From an uncultured Clostridia bacterium (GTDB lineage: Bacteria; UBA6262; WVXT01), in assembly GCA_964345635.1 (NCBI GenBank), contig CAYFRM010000075.1:11531-75530 (forward strand): DNA of 64,000 bases, given 5' to 3'. The notes beneath the pieces were generated by a model that made no database searches, was not told the origin of the DNA, and saw only the letters and a program-made list of their open reading frames with translations. Made by a program: the position numbers and the translations under genes. Below are positions 725 through 63,462 of this stretch, piece by piece (position 1 is the stretch's first letter; each line of letters starts with the position of its first letter).

Positions 725-759
725 AAAGATAGTTTGTTCATCTTCACAAACTATCTTTT
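725..759 (+). terminator. Hairpin/terminator-like element after lpxL-type gene
   Basis: 13-bp perfect inverted repeat AAAGATAGTTTGT/ACAAACTATCTTT with 8-nt loop, ends in TTTT. Confidence 0.35.
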
Positions 760-816
760 GAACGTAAGTAATGACAGAGAGAAGTTTTGCTTTAAAGATA
801 GGAAAGGGTTTGGGAA

Positions 817-1839
817 ATGGCCAAAATTTTAGTTAAGGGTGTAAATTGGATTGGAGATTCGCTATTTATGACCCCGGCCTTATCTGCCTTGAGAAAAGGA
901 TTTCCCGATTCTCATATAAGCCTTCTGATTAATCCCTGGGTGAAGGAAATATTTGATGGCAATCCGGATTTTGATGAGACGATTATTTATGATGAAAAAG
1001 GCAAGGAAAAAAGCCTGAAAGGAAAGATTAGATTTATTCGCTCATTAAGGGATAGAAATTTTGACACGGGCATAGTTATGCAGCCACGTTCCTACAAGGC
1101 TGCTTTTTTCGTCTATTTAAGTAGAATTCCCGAGCGAATTGGTTATGGTCATTCACTGAGAAATCTACTCCTGACCAGAATAGTGAAGCCTCCCAAAGTT
1201 TCCCTTCACGCCGTAGATATGTTCCTGAATATTGTCTTTTCTCTGGGAGTGGAACCTGCGAGAAAGGAACCCTACTTGCCGTCAAGCCCGCAAGCAAACG
1301 ATTGGGCCGACAGCTTTTTGGAGAAAAGGGGAGTTAACCTGGGAGAATTATTGATCGGTATCAATCCCGGAGCGTTCAAGCAATCCAAGCGGTGGCCGGA
1401 GTCAAGATACGCCGAGCTATCCGATAAAATGACCGAGGAGTTCAGGGCAAAAGTTATTGTTTTCCAGGGACCGGGAGAAGATAAGATTGTAGGAAAAGTA
1501 GTGAATTTGATGAGAGAAAAAGCGATAATAGCGAATACAGGTATCAAGGAATTGGCTGCGCTCTCCCGCAGGTGCAAGTTATTCGTGGCTAACGATACAG
1601 GTCCTATGCACGTGGCTGCTGCCAGCGGTACTCGGGTAATTGCTCTATTTGGCCCTGCCGACCCGCAACGGAGCCGTCCCTGGGGCAGGGATCATACGGT
1701 AATAAAGAAAGACCTGCCGTGCAGTCCTTGTTCGCGGATAGTCTGCAAAGAACTGAACTGTATGAAAGCGATTACCGTGGAAGAAGTCTTTCGGGCGGTT
1801 CGGGTCCAGCTGGAAAGAATCGAGGAACCGAAGAGCTAA
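817..1839 (+). CDS. ADP-heptose:LPS heptosyltransferase (glycosyltransferase family 9)
   Basis: 340 aa; N-terminal 'ILVKGVNWIGDSLF' and C-terminal 'ANDTGPMHVAAA..GPADP' typical of GT9 (RfaF/RfaC-like). Confidence 0.8.
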   Translation: MAKILVKGVNWIGDSLFMTPALSALRKGFPDSHISLLINPWVKEIFDGNPDFDETIIYDEKGKEKSLKGKIRFIRSLRDRNFDTGIVMQPRSYKAAFFVYLSRIPERIGYGHSLRNLLLTRIVKPPKVSLHAVDMFLNIVFSLGVEPARKEPYLPSSPQANDWADSFLEKRGVNLGELLIGINPGAFKQSKRWPESRYAELSDKMTEEFRAKVIVFQGPGEDKIVGKVVNLMREKAIIANTGIKELAALSRRCKLFVANDTGPMHVAAASGTRVIALFGPADPQRSRPWGRDHTVIKKDLPCSPCSRIVCKELNCMKAITVEEVFRAVRVQLERIEEPKS

Positions 1840-1870
1840 CACTGGCCATCAAAAGAGGTTAAGAAGGAAG

Positions 1871-2725
1871 TTGAACAGGGAGATTCCACCACAGTTTGAG
1901 AAGGTAGTAATAGGCAAGAGTACCATATTCGTAAAAAGTAAATATAAAGACCCGATATTAAGTCAAAAAGCTACTCTCTTGCGAAAAGTAAACGAACGAG
2001 GATTGTCTCCGGGAGTCAGTTTACTCAAAGGCAGAAACGTAATCCCCTGCATTCCCATCAAGGGCTCTGATGAAAGAATGATCATAAAACATTATGAGCA
2101 CGGAGGATTGTTACGCAAGATAACAAGAGACATCTTATGGGGAAGTTCCCGGCCGTTTCGGGAGCTGGTGGTCCTGGAAAAGGCGTCCCCAAGGGGCGTC
2201 CCTGTCCCCGAGGTACTTGCTGCCAGAGTGGATAAGATTTTTGGCCCATTCTATAGGGGAGAGATAGCATATAAAGAGATTCCTGATGGTAGTAATTTGT
2301 TGGAATATTTGAAGGGGCTTAACCGGAGAACGAGAGAGGAAAAGATATCTGCAAAGAGAAAAATAATTCCTTCCCTGGCAGAAGCCATTAAAAAAATGCA
2401 CGCCGCGGGAATATACCACGGGGACTTGAATATTAAGAACATATTGGTGAGGAACGAAGGGAAGAGAATTAAAGTGTACCTTCTGGACTTCGATTGTTCG
2501 AGGATTAGGGAGAATATTTCACTGAGAGCAAGAATCAAGAACCTGGCTCGTCTCAACAGGTCCTGCGAAAAATGGAGAGCCGAGATAACCGATAGGGACA
2601 AACTCAGATTCTTCCTTTCCTATTTTAAGGGAAATAAATTAATAAAAGCTAATACCCAAAAATATATTCGCCAGTGCTCACGTTTCCACTGGGGGCACAG
2701 GATATACTGGAAATTTTTCGGATAA
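1871..2725 (+). CDS. Lipopolysaccharide kinase family protein (Kdo kinase/WaaP/InaA-like)
   Basis: 284 aa; 'IYHGDLNIKNILV' catalytic-loop motif of LPS kinase family; located in LPS cluster. Confidence 0.6.
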   Translation: MNREIPPQFEKVVIGKSTIFVKSKYKDPILSQKATLLRKVNERGLSPGVSLLKGRNVIPCIPIKGSDERMIIKHYEHGGLLRKITRDILWGSSRPFRELVVLEKASPRGVPVPEVLAARVDKIFGPFYRGEIAYKEIPDGSNLLEYLKGLNRRTREEKISAKRKIIPSLAEAIKKMHAAGIYHGDLNIKNILVRNEGKRIKVYLLDFDCSRIRENISLRARIKNLARLNRSCEKWRAEITDRDKLRFFLSYFKGNKLIKANTQKYIRQCSRFHWGHRIYWKFFG

Positions 2726-2740
2726 TTTATCCAGAATCGC

Positions 2741-2895
2741 AGGGCAATCCCGATGAATCGGGATGGTCGCCCAAAAAGAGAGGGACGGCACGGAGTCCGT
2801 CCCCTACGTGGAAGCAAAGCTTGCGCTTTGCGGCTACAATTTGTGGCAGCAGAGCGATAGCTCTGCATTGTAGGGGCGACACTCTGTGGTCGCCC
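2741..2895 (+). repeat. Repeat family A, copy A1 (1.5-copy tandem composite palindromic element)
   Basis: Modules ATCCCGATGAATCGGGAT hairpin, GGGACGGCACGGAGTCCGTCCCCTAC, GCAAAGCTTGCGCTTTGCGGCTACAA, AGAGCGATAGCTCTGCATTGTAGGGGCGACACTCTGTGGTCGCCC; shared with copy A2. Confidence 0.8.
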
Positions 2896-2914
2896 GCCAG
2901 GATCGGAAATAACG

Positions 2915-3673
2915 ATGAACAGACTTTCAGTAATTATCATTACCTACAACGAAGAAGAAAATATTGGAGACTGTCTGGAAAACGTCAAGTGGTCTGACGA
3001 GATTGTAATTGTTGACGCTTTCAGTAGTGATAGGACTGTGGAGATAGCCCGAGAATTCACCCCCCGGGTATTCCGGAACAGATGGACCGACTTTTCTCAG
3101 CAAAAGAACTTAGCCTTGGGAAAAGCAAGCAACGACTGGGTATTAAGTATAGATGCTGACGAACGCGTTACGCCAGAATTGAAGGAAGAAATCATCAACA
3201 TCCTCAATTCCCCGTCTCCACCGTTCAATGGTTACTATATAGCGAGAAGAAGTCACTATCTGGGAAAATGGATCAAGCATTGTGGATGGTATCCCGACTA
3301 TAAGTTACGCCTGTTTCTGAGAGAAAAAGGGAAATTTAACGAAAGGATGGTGCATGAATCTGTACTGGTAGAAGGCAGGAAAGGCCGCCTTAAGTCCTGC
3401 CTGGACCATTATTCATATAAAAACTTATCCGACCATTTAAGCAAAATTGATAAGTTCACTTCCCTCTCTGCCGGGGAAATGTTTACAAAAGGTAAGAAAG
3501 GGACAACATTCGATTTGCTTTTTCGGCCGCCGGTCAAGTTTATCAATATGTACCTGATAAAGAAAGGTTTTCTGGACGGCATATATGGGTTTATTGTTTG
3601 CATTATCGGGAGCTTCTACGTGTTTATGAAATATCTGAAACTCTGGCTGCTGTCGAGGGAGAGAATCGATTGA
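2915..3673 (+). CDS. Glycosyltransferase family 2
   Basis: 252 aa; 'LSVIIITYNEEENI...VIVDAFSSDRT' GT2 N-terminal signature; DAD-like motif 'IDADE'. Confidence 0.75.
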   Translation: MNRLSVIIITYNEEENIGDCLENVKWSDEIVIVDAFSSDRTVEIAREFTPRVFRNRWTDFSQQKNLALGKASNDWVLSIDADERVTPELKEEIINILNSPSPPFNGYYIARRSHYLGKWIKHCGWYPDYKLRLFLREKGKFNERMVHESVLVEGRKGRLKSCLDHYSYKNLSDHLSKIDKFTSLSAGEMFTKGKKGTTFDLLFRPPVKFINMYLIKKGFLDGIYGFIVCIIGSFYVFMKYLKLWLLSRERID

Positions 3674-4647
3674 GAATAGCCGCTATACTTCCCCATGTTG
3701 AGGTTTTTGGTGGGGTGAGAAGGTATATTGAAATAGGCAACAATTTTGTAAAAAGAGGCCACTCTTTCAAGATATACCACACAAACGGAACTCCTCCCGT
3801 CTGGCTGGAGTTTTTCGGCGAGACAAGACCTTTAAGACAGGTAACTTTAGAAGAAAATGACATTGCCATATCCAGCGACTACTCGGTTCTCGATTATTTG
3901 GAAAGAGCCAATGCCCGGAAAAAAATCTTCTATTGCCTGCGCGAGCACAAGAATAATAGAAAAGTATGCAAAACTAAGGAATTTCTCGTTATGGGCAACT
4001 CTACCGGAATATGCGAGATGGTAAGAAGAAAGTATCGAAGGGAATGCATCGAAGGAATTGGCGGGATAAATGCCGAGCTGTTCCGTCCCGAAGAGGAAAA
4101 CAAGGACAGCCGCCAGATAAGAATCCTCTGTTACGGGAGAATATACAAGAAGAGGAAAGGAATCCAGAAGGCAATCAAGGCGACTGAGCTATTGTACGGG
4201 AGATATCCTTCGCTAAGGCTAATGCTATTTGATACTCCCGTAGGCAGTCCCAGACGAGACGCCCGCCAGATGGTTCACAGCAGAGTCCCCGTTACCTTCT
4301 ACACGTCTATCCCTCAGGAGAGAATGGCCCAGCTTTATTCGCAAGCAGATATTTTCGTTAGCGCGGAGAAGAGAGCGGGATGGAGCAATCCTTGTGCGGA
4401 AGCAATGGCTTGTAAAGTTCCCGTTGTCTGCTCGCCTTCCGGGACCAGGGATTTTGCTGTGGACGGGGAGACGGCTCTGGTTTTTCATTTAAGATGTCCC
4501 TTTCTGATTGCCCAGAGGATAAAGAGATTAATCGAAGACAGAGACCTGAGAGAACGGATAAGAGAGAAAGGTTATAGAAAAATTCAAGAATATACATGGT
4601 CGAATCTTGTGGACAGGTTAGAAAAAGAATTCACGAATCTTCTGTGA
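3670..4647 (+). CDS. Glycosyltransferase (GT1/GT4 fold)
   Basis: TTG start overlapping the upstream TGA stop (TTGA); C-terminal 'EAMACKVPVVCSPSGTRDF' GT-B motif; track ORF 3598 start lies inside upstream gene. Confidence 0.6.
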   Translation: MRIAAILPHVEVFGGVRRYIEIGNNFVKRGHSFKIYHTNGTPPVWLEFFGETRPLRQVTLEENDIAISSDYSVLDYLERANARKKIFYCLREHKNNRKVCKTKEFLVMGNSTGICEMVRRKYRRECIEGIGGINAELFRPEEENKDSRQIRILCYGRIYKKRKGIQKAIKATELLYGRYPSLRLMLFDTPVGSPRRDARQMVHSRVPVTFYTSIPQERMAQLYSQADIFVSAEKRAGWSNPCAEAMACKVPVVCSPSGTRDFAVDGETALVFHLRCPFLIAQRIKRLIEDRDLRERIREKGYRKIQEYTWSNLVDRLEKEFTNLL

Positions 4648-4651
4648 TGGG

Positions 4652-4745
4652 AAAAAAGGGGACAGGTACTTTTTTTCCTTTCACCGTGCGGCGCCCAAAA
4701 CTGACGATCCTCTTTTTTAGAAAAAGTAGCCTGTCCCCTTTTTTG
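4652..4745 (+). repeat. Repeat family C, inverted pair C1 (A6-GGGGACAGGTAC-T7 .. 45 nt .. A5-GTAGCCTGTCCCC-T6); potential bidirectional terminator
   Basis: Two reverse-complementary 24-nt motifs; if paired gives 13-bp GC-rich stem followed by U-run. Confidence 0.75.
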
Positions 4746-4755
4746 AGGAAGGACG

Positions 4756-5847
4756 ATGAGAGTCTGCTTTTTTGGAGGTTACAATCCCGGGTATATACGG
4801 AATGTAATTATCAAGGAAGGTCTGATAAAGAACGGCGTGGAAGTGGTAGAATGCCGCACAAAATCGAAATTTAAATTCTGGCTCAGATATCCCATACTTT
4901 TTTTTCGGCAGCTTAGATTTTTTCCTGTAAAATACGATTTTATTTTTGTTCCTGCTTTTCGACACAAAGATGTTCCCCTGGCCAAGCTCATGGGAATCCT
5001 GACCAATAAGCCTGTAGTTTTTGACCCTTTTGTCTCCCGCTACGAAACCAAAGTAGTCGACCAGAAGAAGGTGACGCCATATTCTCTGCAGGCAAAGCAT
5101 AATTTCAGAATAGATAAATGGTCTTTTAGACTTGCAGATATAATTCTCACCGATACTCTGGCTCATGCGGACTATTACGCCAGAGAGTTCGGCATAAAGA
5201 AGGGTAAATTTGAAAGGGTTCCGGTGGGGGTACCCGACCGAATTTTTTCTCCCTCCCGAATGGAGAAGGAAGAGAAGAATAGAAGAAAAAGTTATTTCCT
5301 CGTTCAGTTTTACGGTTCCTTCCTTCCCCTGCAGGGAATAGAGCATATTGTGCAGGCCGCCAGAATAGTGGAGAAGAGAGATACGTCCGTTCGCTTCGAA
5401 TTGATAGGCTCGGGCCAGACTTTTCCCATGATTAGAAGGTTGGTCGAGGAACTGGGATTAAGAAATATGATTCTGCGGGACTGGATTCCTTTCAAGGAGT
5501 TACTGGAAGCAGTCTCCTATGCAGACGTCTGTCTGGGAATATTCGGTGATACGGAGAAAGCGTTCCGCATAGTTCCGAACAAAGTTTTTCAATGTTTATC
5601 TCTGGAAAAACCCGTGATTACCGGAAGAACCCCGGCAATCACAGAGTATTTTGTGGATAAAGAAGATATCTTCCTTTGCGAAGCGGCAAATGCTGAATCC
5701 CTGGCTGAGGCAATTATGCTATTGAAAAATAATGAACGATTACGGGAGAAAATAGCCAGAAACGGATATAGATCAATACAGGAAAACTTCACTTCGGAAA
5801 CAATCGGCAGGCAAATAAGGAAAATCTTAAGTAAAGCTTTGGCGTAA
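4756..5847 (+). CDS. Glycosyltransferase (GT-B fold, GT1/GT4-like)
   Basis: 363 aa; RBS aggaagg upstream of ATG; GT-B C-terminal domain pattern (E-x7-E region, 'KPVITGRTPAITEY'). Confidence 0.55.
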   Translation: MRVCFFGGYNPGYIRNVIIKEGLIKNGVEVVECRTKSKFKFWLRYPILFFRQLRFFPVKYDFIFVPAFRHKDVPLAKLMGILTNKPVVFDPFVSRYETKVVDQKKVTPYSLQAKHNFRIDKWSFRLADIILTDTLAHADYYAREFGIKKGKFERVPVGVPDRIFSPSRMEKEEKNRRKSYFLVQFYGSFLPLQGIEHIVQAARIVEKRDTSVRFELIGSGQTFPMIRRLVEELGLRNMILRDWIPFKELLEAVSYADVCLGIFGDTEKAFRIVPNKVFQCLSLEKPVITGRTPAITEYFVDKEDIFLCEAANAESLAEAIMLLKNNERLREKIARNGYRSIQENFTSETIGRQIRKILSKALA

Positions 5848-5852
5848 AAAGA

Positions 5853-6932
5853 TTGAATACTGTATTACATATCGATTCAGCAAAAACCTGGAGGGGTGGC
5901 CAGCAGCAAGTTCTCTATCTTGCCCAGAAGCTAGGAGACTACCATAACATAATTGCCTGCCCTCCTCAAAGCCCTCTGGCAGAAAGAGCGAAAGATGCAG
6001 GATTAAAAGTCTTCCCCGTCAACATGCGCGGGGAATGGGATCTTGGGGCAGTATGCAAATTAAGAAAGATAATAAGAAAAAACTCTATTAAAATAGTCCA
6101 TCTCCATTCTCCCCACGCCCACGCGTTGGGCCTGCTGGCGGCAAAAAGTGGGGGAAATTGCAAAGTCGTTCTGTCGCGCAGAGTCGATTTTCCCATTAAG
6201 AAGAATCTGCCCAGTCGCCTGAAGTATTCAAAGGTTGACGGGGTAATAGCAATTTCTGAGAGAGTTAAAAGAGTTTTACTTGCCGACGGATTATCGGAAG
6301 AGAAAATCGATGTTGTCTACAGCGGGATAGATATGGACAGATTTCAAGATACAAAGGGAGACTATCTTATTTCTGAATTGGCACTAAATAGAAATAGTTT
6401 ACGCATAGGGAATATTGCTGCTCTTGCCTGGCATAAAGACCACAAAACTCTTATTGCAGCGGCAAGAGTTGTGATAGATGAATTTCCTCAGGCGGTATTT
6501 TTAATAGCAGGAGAAGGCCCTCTTCGCGAAGAGTTAGAGATTTTAGTCAAAAAATTGGATTTACAAGAAAAGGTGAAATTATTGGGATTTCGCCAGGATA
6601 TTCCGGAAATACTCTCTATTTTCGATATTTTCGTGCTATCTTCCAGCTGGGAAGGGTTAGGCACTTCGCTTCTGGATGCTTTTGCTTCGCGAGTACCCGT
6701 AATAGCCACCAACGTGGGAGGAATCCCCGAGATTGTCAGAGACGGGGTAAATGGAATCCTGGTTCCTCCCGGAGATCCGAAAGCCTTATCCAGAGCCATC
6801 ATTTCTCTTCTGAAGAACAAAGACCTTGCGGGTCGAATAGCAAAAGAAGGTTTTCACCTGGCAAAAGAGAAGTTCAGTGTAGAAAGAATGGCCCGGGACA
6901 CAAAAAAGATTTACGACCGCCTGGTAATTTAG
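5853..6932 (+). CDS. Glycosyltransferase family 4 (WaaG/RfaG-like)
   Basis: 359 aa; 'GLGTSLLDAFASRVPVIATNVGGIPEIVRDGVNGILVPPGD' canonical GT4 motif. Confidence 0.8.
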   Translation: MNTVLHIDSAKTWRGGQQQVLYLAQKLGDYHNIIACPPQSPLAERAKDAGLKVFPVNMRGEWDLGAVCKLRKIIRKNSIKIVHLHSPHAHALGLLAAKSGGNCKVVLSRRVDFPIKKNLPSRLKYSKVDGVIAISERVKRVLLADGLSEEKIDVVYSGIDMDRFQDTKGDYLISELALNRNSLRIGNIAALAWHKDHKTLIAAARVVIDEFPQAVFLIAGEGPLREELEILVKKLDLQEKVKLLGFRQDIPEILSIFDIFVLSSSWEGLGTSLLDAFASRVPVIATNVGGIPEIVRDGVNGILVPPGDPKALSRAIISLLKNKDLAGRIAKEGFHLAKEKFSVERMARDTKKIYDRLVI

Positions 6933-7008
6933 GTTTTACCCCGTTAGAAATGGATGTTACAAATTCTCCTGAGGGAATTTCTAACGGGGTTTATGCCCGT
7001 AATGTTTT
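6931..7008 (+). repeat. Repeat family B, copy B1 (hairpin element, loop orientation '+')
   Basis: CCCCGTTAGAAAT-[25-nt loop GGATGTTACAAATTCTCCTGAGGGA]-ATTTCTAACGGGG perfect 13-bp stem, flanks ..TTTACC / GTTTATGCCCGTAAT. Confidence 0.85.
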
Positions 7009-7020
7009 CAGGATATCTCG

Positions 7021-7917
7021 ATGAACATCTTCCATTATTATCCCAAAGTTTTGCCGGTGAAAAAGTATGGGGGAACCCAGAGGATAGCTGTTAATTTAAT
7101 GAAAGAACAGGTAAAGATGGGACATAAGGTGTATCTACTGAGCCTGGTGGGCACGCATCTACCTTCTATAAACGTCAAGACGATAAAGAAGCCGATACAA
7201 AATTTTCAAGATTGTGTTCCCGATAACATAGACATTGTCCAATTATATGCTACACCGCGAGAGATTCCTCATAGACCCTATCTGGTAAGGATCGGAGGGA
7301 ATGGCAAGCCGGGGGAAAAGTTTCTTACCAATACAGTATTTGTGAGTGAGAACCACGGTATGCGTCACGGAAGCAGACATTATATCTACAGCGGAATCAA
7401 CCTGGATGATTTTATTTATAGAGAGAAAAAGGAAGACTACTTTCTCTTTCTGGCAAAGGTCTCATGGAAAGTTAAGAATGTGAAGTTAGCCATAAGATTA
7501 GCAAAGGTGATGGGATTCAGACTGATCGTCGCCGGAGGGTGGAGACTTTCTTTCAGAAGAAACATCAAATTCGTAGGAGAAGTGGATGATAAAGAAAAAG
7601 CAGAGCTTCTGGCAGGAGCAAAAGCCCTCATTTTTCCCACAAACTGGCAGGAGCCCATCGGTAACGTGACGCTGGAGGCGATGGCTTCAGGGACACCCGT
7701 AATTACCACTAACCAAGGAGCGATGCCCGAGATAATTACTTCCGGGGTCGGTTTTCGCTGCGATACTTTTGAACAGTTCAAGGAAGCCGTAAACAGAATC
7801 GACCAAATCAGTCCCCGAAAATGTAGAGAGAGAGTGGAAGAGAATTTTACGGCCGAAATTATGGCCCGCAACTACCTAAAAGCGTATGAAAGAATAATTC
7901 AGACGGGCAACCTGTAG
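7021..7917 (+). CDS. Glycosyltransferase (short GT4-like)
   Basis: 298 aa; C-terminal 'NWQEPIGNVTLEAMASGTPVITTNQGAMPEII' GT-B motif. Confidence 0.6.
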   Translation: MNIFHYYPKVLPVKKYGGTQRIAVNLMKEQVKMGHKVYLLSLVGTHLPSINVKTIKKPIQNFQDCVPDNIDIVQLYATPREIPHRPYLVRIGGNGKPGEKFLTNTVFVSENHGMRHGSRHYIYSGINLDDFIYREKKEDYFLFLAKVSWKVKNVKLAIRLAKVMGFRLIVAGGWRLSFRRNIKFVGEVDDKEKAELLAGAKALIFPTNWQEPIGNVTLEAMASGTPVITTNQGAMPEIITSGVGFRCDTFEQFKEAVNRIDQISPRKCRERVEENFTAEIMARNYLKAYERIIQTGNL

Positions 7918-7944
7918 TCTCTTTTCTTTGCTGCTGCGAAAAGA

Positions 7945-8093
7945 AATGTAGCTTGAGAGCGATAGCTCTGCATTGTAGGGGCGACACTCCGTGGTCGCCC
8001 AAAGGAAGGGACGGCACAGAGTCCGTCCCCTACAGACAGGCAAAGCTTACGCTTTGCTGCTACAAAATTGGTTGGCAGTGTAGGGCTTTACGT
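7945..8093 (+). repeat. Repeat family A, copy A2, fused to a family-B flank fragment (8069-8093)
   Basis: Same modules as A1 in permuted order; ends with GTGTAGGGCTTTACGTCCGTAATGG (family B host motif without hairpin). Confidence 0.8.
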
Positions 8094-8124
8094 CCGTAAT
8101 GGCTTTAAGCAGGGGAGAAGAAAG

Positions 8125-29647: not shown

Positions 29648-31474
29648 TTGGCTATTCCGGGTTATTTAATAGACCAGATACGGCAAAGCAATAATATCGT
29701 AGAGATCATTTCTGGATATCTACCGCTAAGGAAGACAGGAAGCAATTTTAAAGCGCTCTGTCCGTTTCATCAGGAAAAGACGCCTTCTTTCATCGTTTCG
29801 CCGCAAAAAGAGATATTCCATTGCTTCGGTTGCGGAGAAGGAGGGAACGTCTTCAATTTCCTGATGAAGCACGAGAAGATAAGTTTTATGGAGGCTGTGG
29901 AAAGATTGGCTGAGCGGGCAGGGATTACTCTTCCCCAAGATAGAGCCAGCTCGGAGCAAGCTTCCAGGATTTCTCAGGAGAGAAAGAGTCTTTTTGAAAT
30001 CAATTATAATGCCGCCGACTTTTTTCATCGCTGTTTAAAGAGTTCCCCATCCGCTCAAAAGGCGCGGGAATATCTCAAAAAGAGAGGATTGAAAGAAGAG
30101 ACTATTAATAAATTCAGGATGGGCTATGCCCCTGGGAGAGGAGGTCTCCTGGCGGCGGCTGTAAAAAAAGGCTATTCCCGGGAGCTCTTGAAGAAGGCCG
30201 GGTTAGTCACTTTTTCCGAAAAAGTAAACGATTATCGCGACCTGTTTTTCGAGCGGATTATTTTTCCCATTTCCGACGTTCAGTCCAGGATAATTGCCTT
30301 TGGCGGCAGGACTTTGGGAGAACGACAACCCAAATACCTGAATTCTCCCGAAACCACGGTCTTTTATAAAGGAAAGACTCTTTACGCGCTCAATCTCGCC
30401 AGGGAGTCTATTCAGAAAAAGAATCAGATTGTGGTTCTTGAGGGATATACAGATGTTCTCTCTTGCCACCAGTTTGGAGTAGAGAACAGCGTGGCCACTC
30501 TGGGAACCGCTTTGACCGGAGACCATGTTTCCATAATATCACGCTACGCCGAAGAGGTAGTAATAGTCTACGATGCCGATACCGCGGGGGTTAAGGCCGC
30601 GTTAAGAGGGCTGGACCTATTGATAGGGAGTGGACTGAAAGTGAAAGTAGTAGCCCTCCCGCAAGGCACCGACCCTGACGATTTCCTCCGCTCTCAAGGG
30701 GCAGCAAGATTTCAAAGAGAAATTTCCCGGGCACTCTCTCTAGTCGATTATCGCATTAAGTTGGTTTCCCAGGATACCGATATGAATAGTTCCGAAGGAA
30801 GGGTTGCCGTGGTGGAAGAGGTGTTGCCCACCATTGCCAGAATAAAGAATCTGGTGGAGCAGAAAGAAGAAGTTAAGAAGTTATCCCGCTTAATTTCCGT
30901 GGATGAAGAGACGTTACTGTTGGAACTGGGGAGGATAAACAAGAAGACGTACCGCTGGGAAGAGCCTTCTTATAAAAAGGAACTGGCCAGAGATTTTTCC
31001 GGCACCACTTCCGAACAAGGCATCCTCAAGGCGGAAAAAGGGTTGGTACAGGTAATGCTTAATTATCCTGAAGAAATTGAGACGATCAAAGCGGAAATCG
31101 CAGCCGAAGACTTTTTTATCGACGAGCTTTGCAAAATTGTGAAGGTTATATACGAATTATATGACAAGAGAAAATCTGTAAACCCGGCGATAATTATGGA
31201 TAGAATTTACAGCCGGGACCTGCAATTTTCAGCCAGGATCAATCAGGTTATCGCCTCCCTGGCTATGGAAGAGAAAAAAGCAGAATACTCGCCGGAGACG
31301 GTTAACGCATTGATCTGTAGGGTAAAGATGCACAAGCCGGAAGAGGAATACAGAAGAATAGGAGAAGAGGTTGCAACTTTGATAGATAAAGGATTACCGG
31401 TAGGACGAAAAAAAATAGAAAAGCTTCAAAAACTAACAAAGCAACTCAAGGGAAGCAAAAATGAAAGAATATAA
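29648..31474 (+). CDS. dnaG: DNA primase
   Basis: 608 aa; zinc-binding '[16 protein letters not shown]', TOPRIM 'VVLEGYTDV'. Confidence 0.9.
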
Positions 31475-33185
31475 AGAAAAAATTTCCGAGTTGATCGAAC
31501 AGGGAAAAGAGACGGGAAAACTAACCTATCAGGAGATAAACGAGCAACTTCCCGAAAGTATAGTCGATTCTGACGAAATAGACGATATTCTCAGTAAACT
31601 TGACGAGCTGGGAATCGATGTCGTAGATAAAATTGCCCTGATTGAAAGGCCGGAGAAAGCAGAGGAGGAAAAGGGAGGTTTAGTCCCCATAACTCCCGCT
31701 ACCGAAATAGAGACGAGCGATTCCATAAAGATGTACCTGAACGAGATGGGCAAGGTTTCTCTGCTCAGTCGCGCTCAGGAGATGCATTTAGCCAAGAGCA
31801 TAAAGGACAATGAAAAAAAGCTGAAACAAGTAGCGTTAGAATCACCTATAGCTTTAAGGGAGATAAAGCTAATGGGTAAGATGTTAGAGAAACGCGAAAT
31901 TACTCCCAAGGAGTTGATGCCGCGGGGTCGAAAGACCGGCGCGGCTTTGGCCAGAATGAGGCAGAAGATGAAAAGGGTCGTTCGGGAAATCACCAAAGGC
32001 GAGAGAAAAATCCTGGCCTACGAGAAGAGATTGAAAGCGAAGAGAATTACTCCTAAGTCAAGAGAGAAAGTGGAGAAATTATTGTCCCAGGAAAAGAAGA
32101 AAATTCTGCAGCAAATTCTGGATTTGAACTTGAAAGCAGATAAGATTAAGAAAATAATTATAAAAATCAAACACACGGGTCTAAGATTGAGACAGATAGA
32201 AAAAGAAAGCGCTTACTATCAACGAAAGCTTAAACTTTCCTTTCCTGAGGCTAGGAAACTATGGCGCAGAGCCAGGGCGAGGAAAATGTCCCGGGTGGAA
32301 TTCAAGAAGAAAACGGGAGTAACCATAAAAGAGATCAAGGGAATACACAAGAATTTGAGGAACGTGTCTCAGCGTCTCCTGCAGCTGCAGCGAGCGGTGG
32401 GAATGGACTTCTTGGCGATAAAGGAGCTGCACAAGCAGGTTATGCAACTGGAGTCAGAAATTCTCGACGGTAAACTGAAACTGGTTAAGGCAAACTTGAG
32501 GCTGGTGGTCAGTATTGCCAAGAAACATATCAATCCCAACCTTTCTTTGTTAGATTTGATTCAGGAGGGCAGTATCGGGCTGATGAAAGCGGTTGACAAA
32601 TTCGAATATAAGAGGGGGTTTAAGTTTTCCACGTATGCAACCTGGTGGATCAGGCAGTCTATAAATCGGGCAATAGCCGACCAGGCCCGCACTATTAGAA
32701 TTCCTGTACATATGAAAGAGATTATTAGCAAATTGACCAAAATTGCCCGGCGCTATCGTCAGAAATACGGGCGCGATCCTCTAATTGAAGAATATGCCAA
32801 GGAAATGAAGATGGCGCCGGAAAGAATACGCGCCGTGCTGAAGATAATGCAAGAGCCGATATCCCTGGCTACTCCCATCGGCGAGGAAGAAGAAAGCCAC
32901 CTGGAAGATTTCATCGAAGACCGCGATAACCTGTCCCCGGTGAATATTGCCCTGGATGTTCTACGCCAGAAGGAGATAGAGAAAGTATTGTCTACTTTGA
33001 CCGAACGGGAGGCAAAGATTATCAAATTGAGATTTGGTATCGGAGTGGGATATCCCCGCACTTTAGAAGAGGTAGGCCATATATTTAATGTAACCAGAGA
33101 AAGAGTGAGACAGATCGAGGCAAAAGCGATAAGAAAACTGCGACATCCTTCACGTAGCAAGTATTTGAGAGAATACGTTGAATAA
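31461..33185 (+). CDS. rpoD: RNA polymerase sigma factor RpoD (sigma-70)
   Basis: 574 aa; region 2.4 '[11 protein letters not shown]', region 4.2 '[16 protein letters not shown]'; dnaG-rpoD synteny. Confidence 0.9.
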
Positions 33186-33208
33186 AAAAAGGGGACAGGC
33201 TACTTTTT
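33184..33208 (+). repeat. Repeat family C, solo copy C2 (A7-GGGGACAGGCTAC-T5) immediately after rpoD stop
   Basis: Exact reverse complement of C1b/C5b core. Confidence 0.7.
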
Positions 33209-33351: not shown

Positions 33352-35457
33352 ATGGCAAGAAAAATTCGCAAGAGAGATGGCAGGATAGTAAGTTTTGACC
33401 GAAATAAGATCACCAGGGCTATTGAAAAATCCATCCTCTCGGTAAAGGCAAAAGACGGGACGCTGGCAGAAGCTCTATCCCGCCAGGTTATGAAGATAAT
33501 CAAGCGAAAATTCGTGGGGAAAATTCCCGGGGTTGAGGATATACAGGATATTGTGGAGAATGTTCTGATTAAGAACGGACTCACGGGAGTGGCCAAAGCA
33601 TACATCCTCTACCGCCAGAAGCGAAAGGAACTTCGTGAAGCCAAGGGAATTTTCGGCTTACAGGATGATTTGAAATTGCCGGTAAACGCCGTAAGAATTC
33701 TGGAGAAGAGATACTTACTGAGAGACGAATCCGGTAACCTAATCGAAACTCCCAAAAAAATGTTCCGCAGGGTAGCGAAAGAAGTAGCCAGCGCCGACAA
33801 TCTCTATGGAAAAAAATTTAACAGAGAAGAGACGGAAAGAAAATTCTATAGGGTAATGGCAAATCTGGAATTCATTCCCAATAGCCCTACCCTGATTAAT
33901 GCGGGGACCAGAATGGGTCAATTGTCCGCTTGTTTTGTTTTACCTGTGGAAGATTCGATGAAATCGATTTTTGCAGCAGTAAAAGATATGGCTCTAATTC
34001 ATCAATCGGGTGGAGGGACGGGATTCTCGTTTTCCAGACTAAGGCCAAAAGGAGATTTAGTGAAGTCGACCAAAGGAATTGCTTCCGGTCCTGTTTCGTT
34101 CATGCGCGTATTTGACATGGCAACGGATATAATCAAACAGGGAGGCAGGAGAAGAGGAGCAAATATGGGAATCTTGAGAATAGACCACCCCGATATCCTG
34201 GAGTTCGTTACCGCCAAAACCAGGGAAGGAGCCTTTGCCAATTTCAATCTCTCGGTTGCCATTACGGATAAGTTTATGAAATTGCTGGAGGCAAACAAGG
34301 AGTACGAGCTGGTAAATCCCAGAACGAGAAAACCTATCAGCAAATTAAGAGCCAGAGACGTATTTAATTTGATAGTGGCAATGGCGTGGAAGACAGGAGA
34401 CCCCGGTCTTGTGTTTATTGACCAGATAAATAGAAAAAATCCTACCGTCCATACGGGAATAATAGAAAGCACTAACCCTTGTGGTGAACAGCCCTTATTG
34501 CCGTATGAGTCCTGCGTTTTGGGTTCAATAAATCTATCGAGGATGATAGACAGGGACAAGATAGACTGGGAAAAATTAAGAGGTGTAGTGAGAACAGCCG
34601 TCCATTTTCTGGATAACGTTATCGATGTCAACAGGTACCCACTCCCCCGGATAGAGAGAATGACAAAAAGTAACAGGAAGATTGGCCTGGGCGTTATGGG
34701 ATTTGCCGAAATGTTGATCAAACTGGGCATTTCTTATAATTCCCGGGAAGGAGTTAGTATTGCCGAAAATATTATGAAATTTATAACCAGAGAAGCGAGA
34801 GAAAAATCGAAGAAGCTGGCAAAGCTGAGGGGAGTCTTTCCCAACTTCAAGGGAAGCATCTGGGATAAGAGAAAAATAAGGATGCGAAATGCCTGTTTAA
34901 CCACAATAGCACCTACGGGCACGATAAGCACGATTGCCGGTTGTTCCAGTGGCATAGAGCCTTTGTTTGCCATATCTTACGTCCGCAGGATACTGGAAGG
35001 CACGCAATTTCTGGAGACCAACGGTCTGTTCGAAGAGATAGCGAAGGAGAAAGGATTTTACGATAAAAAACTGCTAATGGAGATAGCAAAGAAGGGCTCC
35101 ATACGACACATGAAGAAGATTCCTCCGTCCGTAAGGAAAATATTTGTGACCGCTTTTGACATCTCTCCCGAATGGCATGTGAAGATGCAGGCGCCTTTTC
35201 AGAAACATACGCATAATGCGGTATCAAAGACGGTAAATCTTCCGTACGAAGCTACAGTGGAAGAAGTAGAAAAAGTCTACAAACTCGCGTTTAAACTCGG
35301 ATGCAAAGGAGTTACCGTCTATCGGTATGGAAGCAAACCTCAACAGGTACTTTATCTCGGGCCCGCCCCTAAACGGGTGGGAGAAGAAGAGGCTGGTTAC
35401 GTTAGCGTTGATTCGGAGTATGCCGGAGGTTGCCCGGCTCCCTACTGTCTCTTCTGA
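33352..35457 (+). CDS. nrdJ: Class II (adenosylcobalamin-dependent) ribonucleotide reductase with N-terminal ATP-cone
   Basis: 701 aa; ATP-cone 'KRDGRIVSFDRNKITRAI'; 'NPCGEQPL' active-site Cys motif; no separate beta subunit nearby. Confidence 0.85.
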   Translation: MARKIRKRDGRIVSFDRNKITRAIEKSILSVKAKDGTLAEALSRQVMKIIKRKFVGKIPGVEDIQDIVENVLIKNGLTGVAKAYILYRQKRKELREAKGIFGLQDDLKLPVNAVRILEKRYLLRDESGNLIETPKKMFRRVAKEVASADNLYGKKFNREETERKFYRVMANLEFIPNSPTLINAGTRMGQLSACFVLPVEDSMKSIFAAVKDMALIHQSGGGTGFSFSRLRPKGDLVKSTKGIASGPVSFMRVFDMATDIIKQGGRRRGANMGILRIDHPDILEFVTAKTREGAFANFNLSVAITDKFMKLLEANKEYELVNPRTRKPISKLRARDVFNLIVAMAWKTGDPGLVFIDQINRKNPTVHTGIIESTNPCGEQPLLPYESCVLGSINLSRMIDRDKIDWEKLRGVVRTAVHFLDNVIDVNRYPLPRIERMTKSNRKIGLGVMGFAEMLIKLGISYNSREGVSIAENIMKFITREAREKSKKLAKLRGVFPNFKGSIWDKRKIRMRNACLTTIAPTGTISTIAGCSSGIEPLFAISYVRRILEGTQFLETNGLFEEIAKEKGFYDKKLLMEIAKKGSIRHMKKIPPSVRKIFVTAFDISPEWHVKMQAPFQKHTHNAVSKTVNLPYEATVEEVEKVYKLAFKLGCKGVTVYRYGSKPQQVLYLGPAPKRVGEEEAGYVSVDSEYAGGCPAPYCLF

Positions 35458-35460
35458 ACA

Positions 35461-35485
35461 AAAAAGGGGACAGGTACTTTTTTGC
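35461..35485 (+). repeat. Repeat family C, solo copy C3 after nrdJ stop
   Basis: AAAAAAGGGGACAGGTACTTTTTTG. Confidence 0.7.
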
Positions 35486-35530
35486 ATTTTTGACGATCCC
35501 GGAGAGTCCAAGTAAAATTCCAGGCACAAT

Positions 35531-35770
35531 TTGGAATATCTATTGAAAGTAAATGTAAGATTATTTGCCAGCGTTCGTAAGTTTTCCCGGAAAGACAATC
35601 TGGAGGTAAACATCAAGGAAGATTCCCGCGTGAGCGATTTACTTTCCCAGATAGGAATCCCCGAGGATGAGCCTCTTCTGGTCGTTGTCAACGAGTGCAC
35701 AGGGGGGAAGGAGACCCTGCTTCAGGATGGGGACACTCTTTGCCTCTTCCCGATAATTGCGGGAGGATAA
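35531..35770 (+). CDS. MoaD/ThiS-family sulfur-carrier-like small protein
   Basis: 79 aa ending in Gly-Gly ('LFPIIAGG'), beta-grasp length. Confidence 0.55.
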   Translation: MEYLLKVNVRLFASVRKFSRKDNLEVNIKEDSRVSDLLSQIGIPEDEPLLVVVNECTGGKETLLQDGDTLCLFPIIAGG

Positions 35771-59690: not shown

Positions 59691-60377
59691 ATGGAAGAAA
59701 AAGAAAGGGCTATCCGGCCGGTAGAAAAGGCTTATATTCTTTTGATAGCCATTTTTGTCGGCGGGCTGGTCATTGCCGGTGTACTGGCGAGCAAGATCGT
59801 AAATGTGGCGGGCCTCATAGTTCCGGGAGGAGTTCTCGCCTACTCCATAACTTTCCCTATTACTGATGTAATTTGTGAAGTTTGGGGCAAAAAGCGAGGA
59901 AAATACGTGGTTTTTAGCGGGTTCATTAGTCTCCTGGTAGCCCTGGGACTGATTAGACTTACTCTTATCGTTCCCCAAGCTCCTTTCTGGACCGGGGAAG
60001 AAGCTTTTGCCACTATTTTGGGTAGCACTTCGCGCATTATCGTTGCCAGTTTCATCGCCTATCTGGTAAGCCAGTATCACGACGTCTGGGCATTCCATTT
60101 CTGGCGCAAGGTTACAAAAGGGAAATATCTCTGGCTAAGAAACAATGCTTCCACCTTTGTCTCTCAGTTCATCGATACGGCTGTTTTCATTACCATTGCT
60201 TTTTACGGCGTAATGCCGGTTTTTACGTTAATCAAAGGTCAATATGTCGTCAAACTCCTGATTGCACTACTGGATACGCCCCTTGTCTACTTTGGCGTAT
60301 GGCTGGTAAGAAGGGGAGAAAGAAATGAAGATAGGTATAGTGGGAGTTCCTCCCCAGGAAATTTTGGACAAATATAA
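59691..60377 (+). CDS. Queuosine-precursor transporter (YhhQ/DUF165 family)
   Basis: 228 aa; 'ASFIAYLVSQYHDVWAFHFWRK' and 'NNASTFVSQFIDTAVFITIAFYG' match YhhQ conserved blocks. Confidence 0.75.
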   Translation: MEEKERAIRPVEKAYILLIAIFVGGLVIAGVLASKIVNVAGLIVPGGVLAYSITFPITDVICEVWGKKRGKYVVFSGFISLLVALGLIRLTLIVPQAPFWTGEEAFATILGSTSRIIVASFIAYLVSQYHDVWAFHFWRKVTKGKYLWLRNNASTFVSQFIDTAVFITIAFYGVMPVFTLIKGQYVVKLLIALLDTPLVYFGVWLVRRGERNEDRYSGSSSPGNFGQI

Positions 60378-61059
60378 GGGAAATGATTTCATAGATTTAG
60401 ACACTCTTTTCGATTTTACCGATAACAGTAAAGCCGAAATCTATCTACCGAAGATATACTGCTCCACGATTAAAAGTATCGTAGCCAATGCTTTAACCAT
60501 AAAATTGGACCTTATCATTTTTGATAACGGCTATAGCAAGTGTGACAATGGCAGATTTGTTAGTGAAATTCTCAAGCGTGAGCTTGATGTGCCTATAATT
60601 ACCACTCAAAATAACGCTACTCGCAGGCACCCTCAACCGATATGCGAAAGTGGTCTGGCACTGAGAAAGAAATTTGACTTGATAGTGGACAGTGTCGTCA
60701 AGGACGTTGATAAGTCAAAATTGAAACGCGCCGAGCCGGATTATGGCTTCTGGGGAGTTCCTCCCAATGATTTCAGCATACTTGATCTGTTTCCTGAGAA
60801 AACCCACGTTTTCGGGTGGGCAAGGTGTATGGAGGCAAAAGTTCCCGCGGACCTGGAATTGGAAATGTTGGTAAGGGAGGACCTGCCCACGGTATTCTAC
60901 GCCCAGGCTTTCTGCAGCAAGAACTCCTTAGCCAGGTATCTGGCAAAGAAACATAACGGACTCTATGTTGAGGTTGATGACGTTCTTGATAATTCCGTAA
61001 AACGCAAAATCGAAGCTTACCTCTTACTAAACAGGAAAAAGGGACAGGTACTTTTTTGA
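60325..61059 (+). CDS. Hypothetical protein (possibly partner/DUF2229-like component of the downstream ATPase)
   Basis: 244 aa; GGGGAG RBS; overlaps yhhQ end by 53 nt; C-terminus encodes repeat-C motif. Confidence 0.4.
   Translation: MKIGIVGVPPQEILDKYKGNDFIDLDTLFDFTDNSKAEIYLPKIYCSTIKSIVANALTIKLDLIIFDNGYSKCDNGRFVSEILKRELDVPIITTQNNATRRHPQPICESGLALRKKFDLIVDSVVKDVDKSKLKRAEPDYGFWGVPPNDFSILDLFPEKTHVFGWARCMEAKVPADLELEMLVREDLPTVFYAQAFCSKNSLARYLAKKHNGLYVEVDDVLDNSVKRKIEAYLLLNRKKGQVLF
61036..61057 (+). repeat. Repeat family C, solo copy C4 forming the last 7 codons and stop of CDS 60325-61059
   Basis: AAAAAGGGACAGGTACTTTTTTGA encodes ..KKGQVLF*. Confidence 0.65.
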
Positions 61060-61728: not shown

Positions 61729-62634
61729 ATGCGTTTTGGATTTCACATCTGGATCAGTGAAGGATTCTCCAGAGTTCCTGAACTGGCCCGAAGGAGGAGA
61801 GCCAGGACAATCCAGTTTTTTTCTCGCAACCCCAGAGCATGGGTTTTTTCTCCTGTCGGTGAAGAGGAAGTAAGAAAATTCCGTACCGGAGTAAAAACGC
61901 TGGGAATTAGGCCCTTGTTCGTCCATATGCCCTATCTTCCAAACTTATCGTCTTCCCGGCAGGACTTTTATATCAAATCAATCGATGCACTGAGGAGAGA
62001 ACTGGAAAGAGCAGAAATACTGGGCGCGCCTTTTCTAATTACCCATATGGGAAGCCGTGGGGAAGCAAGTGAAGCAGAGTCTATAGAGAAATTGATTGCA
62101 GCAATAAACTATTCCCTGGAGAAAATCCGGAATAGAGTATCTATAGTTGTGGAGAATACTGCAGGACAGGGGAGTCAGATCGGATATAAATTTTCACAGA
62201 TTAAGACCGTCATTGATGGAGTGGCAGATAAAGAAAGAATCGGGGTCTGCCTGGACACAGCGCATGCGTTTCAGGCGGGATACGACCTTTCCCGGAGAGA
62301 CGGACTGGAAAGAACGCTGGAAGAATTCGAACGATTAATTGGATTTGACAAGTTGAAACTTCTTCATCTCAACGATTCCAAGACTCCTGTTGGCTCCCGG
62401 GTAGACAGGCATTGGCACATTGGTGAAGGATTCATAGGTAGAGAAGGGTTCAGAAATATCGTAAACCACCCGACATTATCCCGTTTTCCGGGAATTATGG
62501 AGACACCCCATAAGAAAGAAGAGGACGACGTTAGAAATATGTCTGAAATAGAAAGTCTTGTAATCCCTCGCCTCAGGCCTTCGGAAAAGCGCGAGGAAGA
62601 AAAAATGAGTGACTGTTTGTCACAAGGAGAATGA
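61729..62634 (+). CDS. nfo: Endonuclease IV (AP endonuclease family 2)
   Basis: 301 aa; 'FLITHMGS', 'VENTAGQGSQIG', 'GVCLDTAHAF', 'LHLNDSK' Nfo metal-binding motifs. Confidence 0.85.
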   Translation: MRFGFHIWISEGFSRVPELARRRRARTIQFFSRNPRAWVFSPVGEEEVRKFRTGVKTLGIRPLFVHMPYLPNLSSSRQDFYIKSIDALRRELERAEILGAPFLITHMGSRGEASEAESIEKLIAAINYSLEKIRNRVSIVVENTAGQGSQIGYKFSQIKTVIDGVADKERIGVCLDTAHAFQAGYDLSRRDGLERTLEEFERLIGFDKLKLLHLNDSKTPVGSRVDRHWHIGEGFIGREGFRNIVNHPTLSRFPGIMETPHKKEEDDVRNMSEIESLVIPRLRPSEKREEEKMSDCLSQGE

Positions 62635-62635
62635 G

Positions 62636-63409
62636 ATGGCCAAAAAAGGAAAGATTGCAATTGTTCCAATTAAGGGAATGGTGGTTTCTGAGGAGACCCC
62701 TTCTTCGCCTTTTCCTATCTTCGCTATGGCCAGGGTAGTCTCGTCGGCCGAAATAATTCCTTTAATTGAAAGCGTAAAAAAGAATCGCCGCATTAGAGGG
62801 TTGATTCTGGAAATAAATTCTCCCGGGGGAAGACCTTTCCCCTGCAAAGAAATTGCAGAATGTATCAAGGACCTGGGAAAGCCCACGGTAGCCTGGATAA
62901 AAGAATATGCCACTTCCGGTGGCTACTGGATCGCCTCGTCCTGCGATAGTATCGTAGCCGACCGTTTGAGTACCCTGGGAAGCATCGGCGTGGCGTCTAT
63001 CCGCCCTGACTTCTCGGAACTGATGAAGAAATTCGGGATAGACGTGGAGACAATGGCTTCGGGTATCTATAAAACGTTCGGCATCCCTTATAAGAAGTCT
63101 ACTCCCGAGGAGAAGGAATTGCTGAAAGAAGAGATGGACACCATTTACAAGAATTTCATAGAAGAGGTCACCAAGAACAGGAAGCTAAACGAGGAAGTGG
63201 TAAAAGAAATATCGACGGGAAAGATTTATTTGGGGGAAGAGGCAAAAAAGTTCGGCTTAATAGACTTTCTGGGAGGAAAGAATAGAGCCATAGAAATAAT
63301 TAAGGAAAAGACAGGAATTCGAGTATACAAAATTGTGGATTACGCCAAAAAGATGAGAAGACCATTGGGATTCTTGAGAAGAATGTTCGGCAGTTTTTCA
63401 AAAAAGTGA
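62636..63409 (+). CDS. sppA: Signal peptide peptidase SppA (36K type, ClpP/crotonase fold)
   Basis: Start MAKKGKIAIVPIKG right after nfo stop; 'ATSGGYWIAS' catalytic Ser region, 'DFLGG' motif. Confidence 0.8.
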   Translation: MAKKGKIAIVPIKGMVVSEETPSSPFPIFAMARVVSSAEIIPLIESVKKNRRIRGLILEINSPGGRPFPCKEIAECIKDLGKPTVAWIKEYATSGGYWIASSCDSIVADRLSTLGSIGVASIRPDFSELMKKFGIDVETMASGIYKTFGIPYKKSTPEEKELLKEEMDTIYKNFIEEVTKNRKLNEEVVKEISTGKIYLGEEAKKFGLIDFLGGKNRAIEIIKEKTGIRVYKIVDYAKKMRRPLGFLRRMFGSFSKK

Positions 63410-63462
63410 CAGGTACAATTTTTAGAAATAGAAATGTAAAAAAGTAGCCTGTCCCCTTTTTT
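63400..63462 (+). repeat. Repeat family C, inverted pair C5 (AAAAAGTGACAGGTAC..12 nt..GTAGCCTGTCCCC-T6) overlapping sppA stop; potential terminator
   Basis: Same architecture as C1 with shorter spacer. Confidence 0.7.

Follow-up and report, generated by a model that had tools for sequence, protein, structure and literature searches.

The window analysed here is the whole stretch of 64,000 nucleotides at positions 11,531 to 75,530 of contig CAYFRM010000075.1, from an uncultured Clostridia bacterium. At the 3′ ends of five of its genes it carries a short repeat made of an A-run, a core of the form GGGGACAGG(C)TAC and a T-run. This motif is very probably the terminal inverted repeat (TIR), similar to a repetitive extragenic palindrome (REP), of a TIRtron with its TIRYT enzyme, a member of Group 1 of the REP-associated tyrosine transposases (RAYTs) and of TnpAY1 subclass 2.1. 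The TIRtron in question would consist of a gene for a Y1 HUH single-stranded-DNA transposase lying between two inverted A(3-7)-GGGGACAGG(C)TAC-T(3-7) copies. The repeat would then be a mobile-repeat family of the ordinary sort, not a sequence built for termination, the pairs in the window being REPIN-like doublets and the solos single repeats. The seven window copies would be non-autonomous family members or relics, because the transposase gene is absent from the window; the bracketing of a Y1 gene is seen in other genomes. The kind of element is already known, and we regard this repeat as a further member of the TIRtron/TIRYT class.

The earlier note on this DNA had proposed a search for a transposase whose terminal repeats match the motif, and in other genomes inverted copies of the motif do bracket a Y1 HUH RAYT/TIRYT gene. 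Six loci (L034, L065, L068, L075, L086 and L113), which represent five phylum-level groups, have inverted copies 685-795 nt apart that enclose one open reading frame (ORF) of 216-226 amino acids with the N-terminus MPRI(P/A)RG. Pfam Y1_Tnp matched all three of the enclosed ORFs that were scanned (L034, L068 and L086; E values from 3.5e-13 to 4.7e-20), and the NCBIfam model for REP-associated tyrosine transposases, REP_Tyr_transpos, gave 88.4 bits for L034 and 77.7 bits for L068, the two scanned, with a cut-off of 80. The L034 protein also matches E. coli TnpA-REP (PDB 4er8). The other five proteins are 50-58% identical to that of L034, and across proteins only this similar the 13-nt core is invariant. 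In the alignment of the six, N59-H60-F61-H62 (the HUH motif, NHFH), W99-Q100 and the catalytic R119-Y120...N124 are invariant, the protein motifs being NHFH, WQ and Y[IV]xxNP. Y1_Tnp is the only domain reported by Pfam at E≤1e-3, and a conserved C-terminal segment (..VNRQxPFG..W..GL..T...RGRP) has no family match. Partial transposase genes adjoin the motif in L016, L024, L042 and L101, and homologues are present elsewhere in the L097 and L102 loci.

The association was also seen with the protein as the starting point. About 30 of 80 metagenome loci carry GGGGACAGGCTAC, or a variant of it differing at 1-2 bases, upstream of the gene and the reverse complement downstream. Within these 80 loci a repeat of the GGGGACAGGCTAC type flanks nearly all homologues at or above about 50% identity, and more distant homologues lack it. 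The variants found beside transposase genes are GGGGACATTCTAC, GGGGTCAGGCTAC, GGGGACTGGCTAC and GGGGTCAGGTAC. Between the end of the upstream copy and the ATG there are 20-66 nt, and the reverse-complement copy usually lies within about 60 nt past the stop. Distant homologues are flanked by other repeats with the A-run/GGGG.../T-run design, for example AAAAGGGGTCGGGAGTCTTT, AAAAGCGGGACAGGTTCGCTTA and AAAAAGGGGCCGTACCCCTTTT, and sister protein clusters are flanked by the sister variants GGGGTCAG and GGGGACAT (last S of GGGGWSAS absent). The type of repeat tracks the protein cluster, as it should if the two co-vary as enzyme and substrate.

Within the window, the pattern GACAGG(N0-1)TAC was counted against dinucleotide-preserving shuffles of the same DNA. 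It occurs seven times, compared to a shuffle mean of 0.30 and a shuffle maximum of 3, with starts at 4661, 33194, 35469, 61043 and 63408 on the plus strand and at 4726 and 63444 on the minus strand; the 19-mer and 18-mer with AAA/TTT flanks gave 3 + 3 matches where 0.03-0.04 were expected. The earlier description of a motif at the 3′ ends of five genes, twice as inverted pairs, is borne out by these counts, as the seven copies comprise three singles and two inverted pairs. All seven are preceded by 5-7 A on the 5′ side and followed by 5-7 T on the 3′ side. The genes concerned are a GT4 glycosyltransferase ORF, rpoD (31461..33185), nrdJ (B12-dependent ribonucleotide reductase; 33352..35457), an unnamed coding sequence and sppA (62609..63409), and the names rpoD, nrdJ and sppA, given in the earlier note, are backed by NCBIfam matches. 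Three further GGGGACAGG 9-mers (2201 and 32930 on the minus strand, 46329 on the plus strand) have neither TAC nor A/T runs and are chance matches. The copies, and a segment that is absent from a close relative (L037), are as follows.

4652..4676, plus strand: left arm of doublet 1, with A6 at 4652-4657, the 12-nt core variant GGGGACAGGTAC at 4658-4669 and T7 at 4670-4676.
4677..4720, no strand: spacer of doublet 1, non-conserved, including TGACGATCC.
4721..4744, minus strand: right arm of doublet 1, read on the plus strand as A5 at 4721-4725, GTAGCCTGTCCCC at 4726-4738 and T6 at 4739-4744.
33184..33208, plus strand: rpoD solo, with A7 at 33184-33190, GGGGACAGGCTAC at 33191-33203 and T5 at 33204-33208.
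35460..35483, plus strand: nrdJ solo, with A6 at 35460-35465, GGGGACAGGTAC at 35466-35477 and T6 at 35478-35483.
35466..35541, plus strand: 76-nt indel segment (nrdJ core, T-run and 58 nt), absent from L037.
61036..61057, plus strand: third solo, slightly degenerate, with A5 at 61036-61040, GGGACAGGTAC at 61041-61051 and T6 at 61052-61057.
63400..63423, plus strand: left arm of doublet 2, degenerate, with A6 at 63400-63405, GTGACAGGTAC at 63406-63416 and then AATTTTT.
63438..63462, minus strand: right arm of doublet 2, read on the plus strand as A6 at 63438-63443, GTAGCCTGTCCCC at 63444-63456 and T6 at 63457-63462.

These copies are packed tightly against the coding sequences. Doublet 1 starts 4 nt past the TGA (4645-4647) of the glycosyltransferase ORF 3598..4647; its right arm, which on the minus strand reads A6-GGGGACAGGCTAC-T5 with the 13-nt core, is followed directly by a ribosome-binding site, GAGGAAGG, and an ATG at 4756. 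The distance between its 24-nt arms was measured as 45 nt, as had been noted before. The A7 of the rpoD solo overlaps the TAA stop of rpoD (33183-33185), and the nrdJ solo begins 2 nt past the nrdJ stop. At 61036 the repeat is itself coding, providing the last seven codons (..KKGQVLF*) of ORF 60325..61059, with its last T entering the stop at 61057-61059; the next ORF starts at 61074. Similarly, the C-terminal residues of SppA (..FSKK*) and its stop codon are supplied by doublet 2, the TGA (63407-63409) lying inside the degenerate core, which reads GTGACAGG where intact copies read GGGGACAGG. The right arm of doublet 2, A6-GGGGACAGGCTAC-T6 on the minus strand, is followed by a plus-strand ORF (MKGLILAGGIGK...) at 63466. 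The gap between the inner T-run and A-run of this doublet is 14 nt, correcting the earlier value of 12 nt.

A collection of species-representative genomes was scanned with AAAGGGGACAGG(N0-1)TACTTT, and exact 18-19-mers were found in at least 119 genome stretches. Among the matches listed there are about 20 phylum-level groups, a count that is approximate because taxon labels conflict and several ‘Eubacteriales’ labels of metagenome-assembled genomes (MAGs) may be wrong. They include Aminicenantes, Nitrospirota, Clostridia, Myxococcota, Campylobacterota, Elusimicrobia, Acidobacteriota, Bipolaricaulota, Tectomicrobia, Omnitrophota and Planctomycetota, with the cultured strains Desulfoscipio geothermicus DSM 3669, Citrifermentans bremense R1 and Sulfurospirillum arcachonense DSM 9755. 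An example of conflicting labels is the pair L028 (‘uncultured Eubacteriales’) and L057 (‘Candidatus Aminicenantaceae’), which share 93% DNA identity over several kb; there is also a conflict between L017, L018 and L083 on the one side and L071 on the other. Between loci, only the core and the A/T runs are common, and flanks and spacers are unrelated. The 205 instances in the loci among the matches listed and in the window comprise 105 solos, 5 tandem pairs and 46 close inverted pairs, and many doublets outside the window have spacers of 12-26 nt. In 45 of the 46 close inverted pairs the arrangement is X..rcX with the GGGG arms outermost, and the single departure is the gap between two neighbouring doublets. 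This constant polarity is not explained by a plain requirement for a hairpin.

A separate observation concerns GGGGACAGGTTAC, which lies in the loop of an 8-11-bp GC-containing stem (ggtgcAAAG...CTTTgcac) in Collinsella (L011, L063, L069 and L070) and Atopobium (L082). It occupies one orthologous, conserved locus, 11 nt after a gene, and is either related to the motif, as a single-copy form, or a structured element of its own.

How the repeat might be recognised was considered from its pairing. The core, GTAGCCTGTCCCC, has no internal dyad; the only self-pairing is that of the A-run (and first G) with the T-run (and last C), 5-8 bp in all, which closes a conserved loop of about 11 nt, GGGACAGG(C)TA. 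The A-run and T-run are present beside the transposase gene in every clade of the family, and the flanks often extend as complementary bases other than A and T: AATAG/CTATT, AAATG/CATTT, AAGCG/CGCTT, TCAAAG/CTTTGA and AAAGGGT/ACCCTTT. In some clades the enclosing stem extends into GGGG/CCCC. Across the family the mean best enclosing stem is 4.5 bp, compared to 3.5 bp in shuffles. Preservation of the stem with different bases gives moderate support to the idea that a small stem-loop is the form recognised on single-stranded DNA, which we liken to the substrates of IS608 TnpA and E. coli TnpA-REP. The paired copies fold further. Doublet 1 (folded over 4646-4752) reaches -33.9 kcal/mol on the plus strand (z -1.9) and -38.3 kcal/mol on the minus strand (z -3.7), and doublet 2 (63394-63470) reaches -16 and -17.3 kcal/mol (z -3.5 and -3.2).

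Comparison between relatives bears on the mobility of the copies. L037 (‘MAG: bacterium CS1-C068’, from assembly WVXT01) is 88% identical over 31677-39384 and L099 (labelled uncultured Clostridia) is 77% identical over 62593-64000. L037 has the rpoD solo unchanged at the orthologous site, and the degenerate sppA doublet is present at the orthologous site in L099. At nrdJ, L037 has an empty site, ...TAAAAAAGAAA|ATTGAAAA..., where the window has the 76-nt segment; the sequence of this site hints that the 5′ A-run may belong to the target. The 9-mer TGACGATCC is found both in the spacer of doublet 1 (4700-4708) and after the nrdJ solo, within the indel (35491-35499), which hints that the nrdJ copy may be a doublet minus its right arm. 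Between L028 and L057 an indel of about 260 nt removes one doublet arm with the spacer and leaves a degenerate single arm. Taken together, the alignments suggest long-standing vertical inheritance of copies at some sites and gain or loss at others, a pattern also reported for REPIN populations. At one site common to L028 (930-990) and L057 (5775-5835), one has a GGGGACAGGCTAC...GTAGCCTGTCCCC doublet and the other has two copies of GGGGACAGTCCCC, a self-complementary repeat of a type that also precedes the TIRYT gene of L125. Either the repeat types interconvert, it would seem, or they have a hot spot in common.

These observations could be accommodated in a single scheme. By analogy with E. 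coli TnpA-REP and the TnpA of IS200/IS605, the transposase would recognise the repeat on single-stranded DNA, where each unit would form a short A:T-rich stem closing the loop GGGACAGG(C)TA. The enzyme would cut and rejoin DNA, so that REPIN-like doublets, and perhaps singles, are copied to new extragenic sites. Copies would survive only where they are harmless, in the gap of a few bases that separates a stop codon from the following gene in a tightly packed co-directional array. As a by-product, doublets may have some attenuating or terminating effect on transcription or shield 3′ ends, and such a secondary terminator or attenuator effect is possible for the two doublets of the window.

The earlier note had identified the paired copies as textbook bidirectional intrinsic terminators, in which case they would be dedicated to stopping RNA polymerase and the solos would be decayed half-terminators. 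We consider this improbable as the identity of the motif. Part of the description stands: both doublets form a long hairpin followed by U6 on either strand, with a GC-rich stem between A-run and U-run that looks alike on both strands, every copy in the window sits at a gene 3′ end, and doublets elsewhere with 12-26-nt spacers are structurally ideal terminator hairpins. However, the stem of doublet 2 (63400-63462) is imperfect, and the 45 nt between the arms of doublet 1 make a loop far longer than the usual ~3-10 nt of a terminator; a consensus terminator scan of 1-20000 did not report the 4652-4745 doublet. One 13-nt stem sequence, fixed in some 20 phyla and tracking the transposase clade, is not what selection for termination would yield, and the A/T runs are integral to the repeat even beside the transposase gene. 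The ribosome-binding site and ATG of the next gene begin only 11 nt (4756) and 3 nt (63466) past the U-run, which leaves no room for a promoter, so that an efficient terminator at the doublets would silence these co-directional genes; the 61036 solo is likewise 14 nt ahead of the next ORF, in an apparent operon. The solos, as the earlier note had recognised, cannot form the GC stem, and they fold no better than shuffled RNA. In addition, a distinct hairpin with U7 (33254-33303; -24 kcal/mol, z -5.2), AAAATCCCTGAGT...ACTCAGGGATTTTTTT, lies about 50 nt 3′ of the rpoD solo, between rpoD and nrdJ. It too has the A-run/T-run design and is kept in L037, and it is likely to be the real terminator of rpoD, for which it is a better candidate than the solo.

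The repeat might instead have been domesticated as an element of the 3′-untranslated region (3′-UTR), its sense-strand hairpin, with an A:U stem and the conserved G-rich loop GGGACAGG(C)UA, serving as a binding site through which a protein or another RNA stabilises or processes the mRNA upstream. Such a role would fit the sense orientation of all three window solos, 0-5 nt from a stop codon, and the perfect conservation of the rpoD solo in L037. Solos elsewhere also lie just 3′ of a same-strand stop more often than of an opposite-strand stop (31 versus 15, the 15 including the transposase's own stop), but this bias carries no weight since the ORF calls are crude and noisy and gene direction is confounded with the replication strand. 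The same confounding holds in the window, where nearly every long ORF, and every gene with a motif copy, is on the plus strand, GC skew is +0.10 to +0.22 and AT skew is positive throughout. Many copies elsewhere are antisense or upstream of genes, the nrdJ copy is dispensable in the close relative L037, and an Rfam scan of the whole window at gathering thresholds returned only RNase P RNA and two tRNAs, with no family at the motif sites. We therefore hold an RNA-level role to be very improbable. Two further readings are scarcely credible: that the motif is a classical miniature inverted-repeat transposable element (MITE) derived from a DDE-type insertion sequence, or that it is a sequence-specific signal with no part in transposition, for example one for DNA uptake or for the binding of a regulator. 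The doublets do have a TIR-spacer-TIR architecture, and the uptake sequences of Neisseria and Pasteurellaceae also form inverted pairs at gene ends. Against this, Y1 HUH transposase genes alone are repeatedly enclosed by the motif, the A-run and T-run of the outer flanks are inverted where a target duplication would be direct, spacers of different loci have nothing in common, uptake sequences are confined to particular lineages and have no transposase linkage, and the density in the window is about one copy per 9 kb. The suggestion that the copies are TIR remnants of a transposable element thus holds insofar as the inverted motif brackets a transposase gene, but not in the sense of DDE elements with target-site duplications. 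GGA loops of the CsrA type, Shine-Dalgarno mimicry, pairing with a universal RNA, integron attC sites and uptake sequences were also considered, and none explains the bracketing of the Y1 gene.

Several points weigh against the TIRtron assignment itself. The window holds no TIRYT homologue by tblastn with six TIRYTs (best E>1), nor did a 62-sequence profile hidden Markov model match any six-frame ORF of the window at E≤10. The stem of the unit is weak: as RNA the solos fold at -4 to -5.8 kcal/mol with no gain over shuffles, and as single-stranded DNA at -3 to -5.4 kcal/mol (z -1.8 to -3.3). The unit is not a canonical GC-rich REP palindrome. The alternative origin of solos as half-sites left by deletion is matched by the L028/L057 indel with its remaining arm, but the direction of the indels, insertion or deletion, is not assignable without an outgroup and so does not prove it. 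Searches of plasmids and phages for a close TIRYT, as a possible vehicle between phyla, returned only homologues at 36% identity or less. To our knowledge there is no biochemistry for subclass 2.1 enzymes, and cleavage and mobilisation are inferred. Lastly, automatic and manual searches in a previous survey gave no REP-like sequences for subclass 2.1 (Quentin et al., 2018; PMC6006769). We give an outside chance to co-option, in which the TIRYT together with its repeat, or a host factor that reads the hairpin on the sense strand immediately after stops, would do a conserved cellular job such as 3′-end formation or protection or replication-fork-linked processing of single-stranded DNA, and not merely selfish copying. 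Such a job would account for a 13-nt loop that stays identical in about 20 phyla while enzyme identity falls to about 50%; in that case the doublets would be true bidirectional terminators, made portable by a transposase that has been domesticated.

The repeat and the gene linked to it match a published class of element. Di Nocera et al. (2013; PMC3733652) described RAYT-like genes flanked by inverted repeats, which they termed TIRtrons, with TIRYTs as the enzymes, a TIR consensus GGGGWSAS, and moderately abundant TIR families occurring as singles, dimers or clusters; according to the same paper, a terminator or 3′-end-protecting effect has been proposed for REP elements. Most TIRYTs fall into TnpAY1 subclass 2.1, which corresponds to RAYT Group 1 of Bertels and has the motifs NH[YF]H, W[EQ] and Y[IV]xLNP and a median length of 238 amino acids; Y1 transposases are known for strand-specific action at replication forks (PMC6006769). 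Among the RAYT groups, Group 1 has the most members and the widest distribution, being found in 21 classes including Clostridia, with flanking 16-mers that are modestly over-represented and horizontal transfer that is probably more frequent (Bertels et al., 2017; PMC5581495). The system described here shares with these a Y1 HUH transposase of about 220 amino acids bracketed by inverted repeats, the segment GGGGACAG of the repeat fitting GGGG-W-S-A-S (the consensus of PMC3733652 and PMC6006769), dispersal of the repeat as singles, dimers and clusters, the protein motifs NHFH, WQ and Y[IV]xxNP, and a very wide, patchy taxonomic spread. It differs in that the window holds only repeats without the gene, that the invariant core is 13 nt whereas the papers cited here describe only a common 8-nt GGGGWSAS, and that the C-terminal helix-turn-helix of subclass 2.1 (Bac_DnaA_C, HTH_23 or HTH_28) was not detected here by Pfam. 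Exact 12/13-mers, as DNA or RNA on both strands, returned only unrelated human primers from the searchable literature, although the sequence may be printed in the figures of the papers cited. Two features may go beyond those papers: a 13-nt core kept strictly in many phyla while enzyme identity falls to about 50%, and the clean co-variation of repeat and enzyme by clade in a RAYT group surveyed as having no REP-like partner.

The likeness extends to the canonical REP/REPIN-RAYT systems of E. coli and Pseudomonas (Groups 2 and 3), which also have short extragenic repeats mostly 3′ of genes, inverted doublets of constant relative orientation that form long hairpins, single copies that persist at orthologous sites, and a cognate single-copy Y1 gene flanked by repeats. 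The reverse complement of the 13-nt core even begins with GTAG. However, the unit is not a 20-40-nt GC-rich palindrome with a GTAG foot; its only self-pairing is between the A-run and T-run, the conserved bases lie in the loop with GTAG among them, and the 12-nt variant reads GTAC, not GT[AG]G. With no dyad in the core, a canonical GTAG REP unit was rejected. In IS200/IS605 elements (IS608, ISDra2), the enzymes are likewise Y1 HUH proteins that recognise small subterminal hairpins on single-stranded DNA, with insertion without target duplication and a strand bias tied to replication. Those elements are multi-copy autonomous insertion sequences with unlike left and right ends, whereas here both ends are one repeat in inverted orientation, and it is the repeats that multiply and not the gene.

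The window contains other repeats. A second, canonical REP family is present at 2743-2818, 2842-2895, 7947-8044, 43564-43639 and 49142-49217, in four or five copies of 61-91% identity. Its unit, GTAG-GGGCGAC..GTCGCCC ... GGGACGG..CCGTCCC-CTAC, consists of two GC-rich hairpins with GTAG and CTAC feet, in a REPIN or ‘double-foot’ arrangement, and the genome thus carries at least two different RAYT-type repeat families. A third family of 53-80-nt palindromes, ACCCCGTTAGAAAT...ATTTCTAACGGGGT, occurs in both orientations with 92-94% identity at 6938-7001, 14345-14424 and 16202-16281, and a short family related to it, GTAGTGTAGGGCTTTAC, is found at 8071, 14341 and 50400. The structured RNAs of the window are a class A RNase P RNA at 55570-55859 and tRNAs at 38627-38700 and 53146-53217.

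For annotation, the assignment means that these sites should be labelled as TIRYT/RAYT-associated repeats and not as terminators or regulatory sites, and that the product of ORF 60325..61059 and SppA receive their final codons and stop codon from a repeat. Subclass 2.1/Group 1 is the largest and least understood group of RAYTs, for which one survey reported no REP-like partners. A sharply defined repeat of A-run, 13-nt core and T-run, which co-varies with the protein clade and is found in the cultured C. bremense, D. geothermicus and S. arcachonense, would be a ready substrate for a first biochemical test of these enzymes. The repeat would also serve as a marker for tracing the horizontal spread of the TIRYT system.

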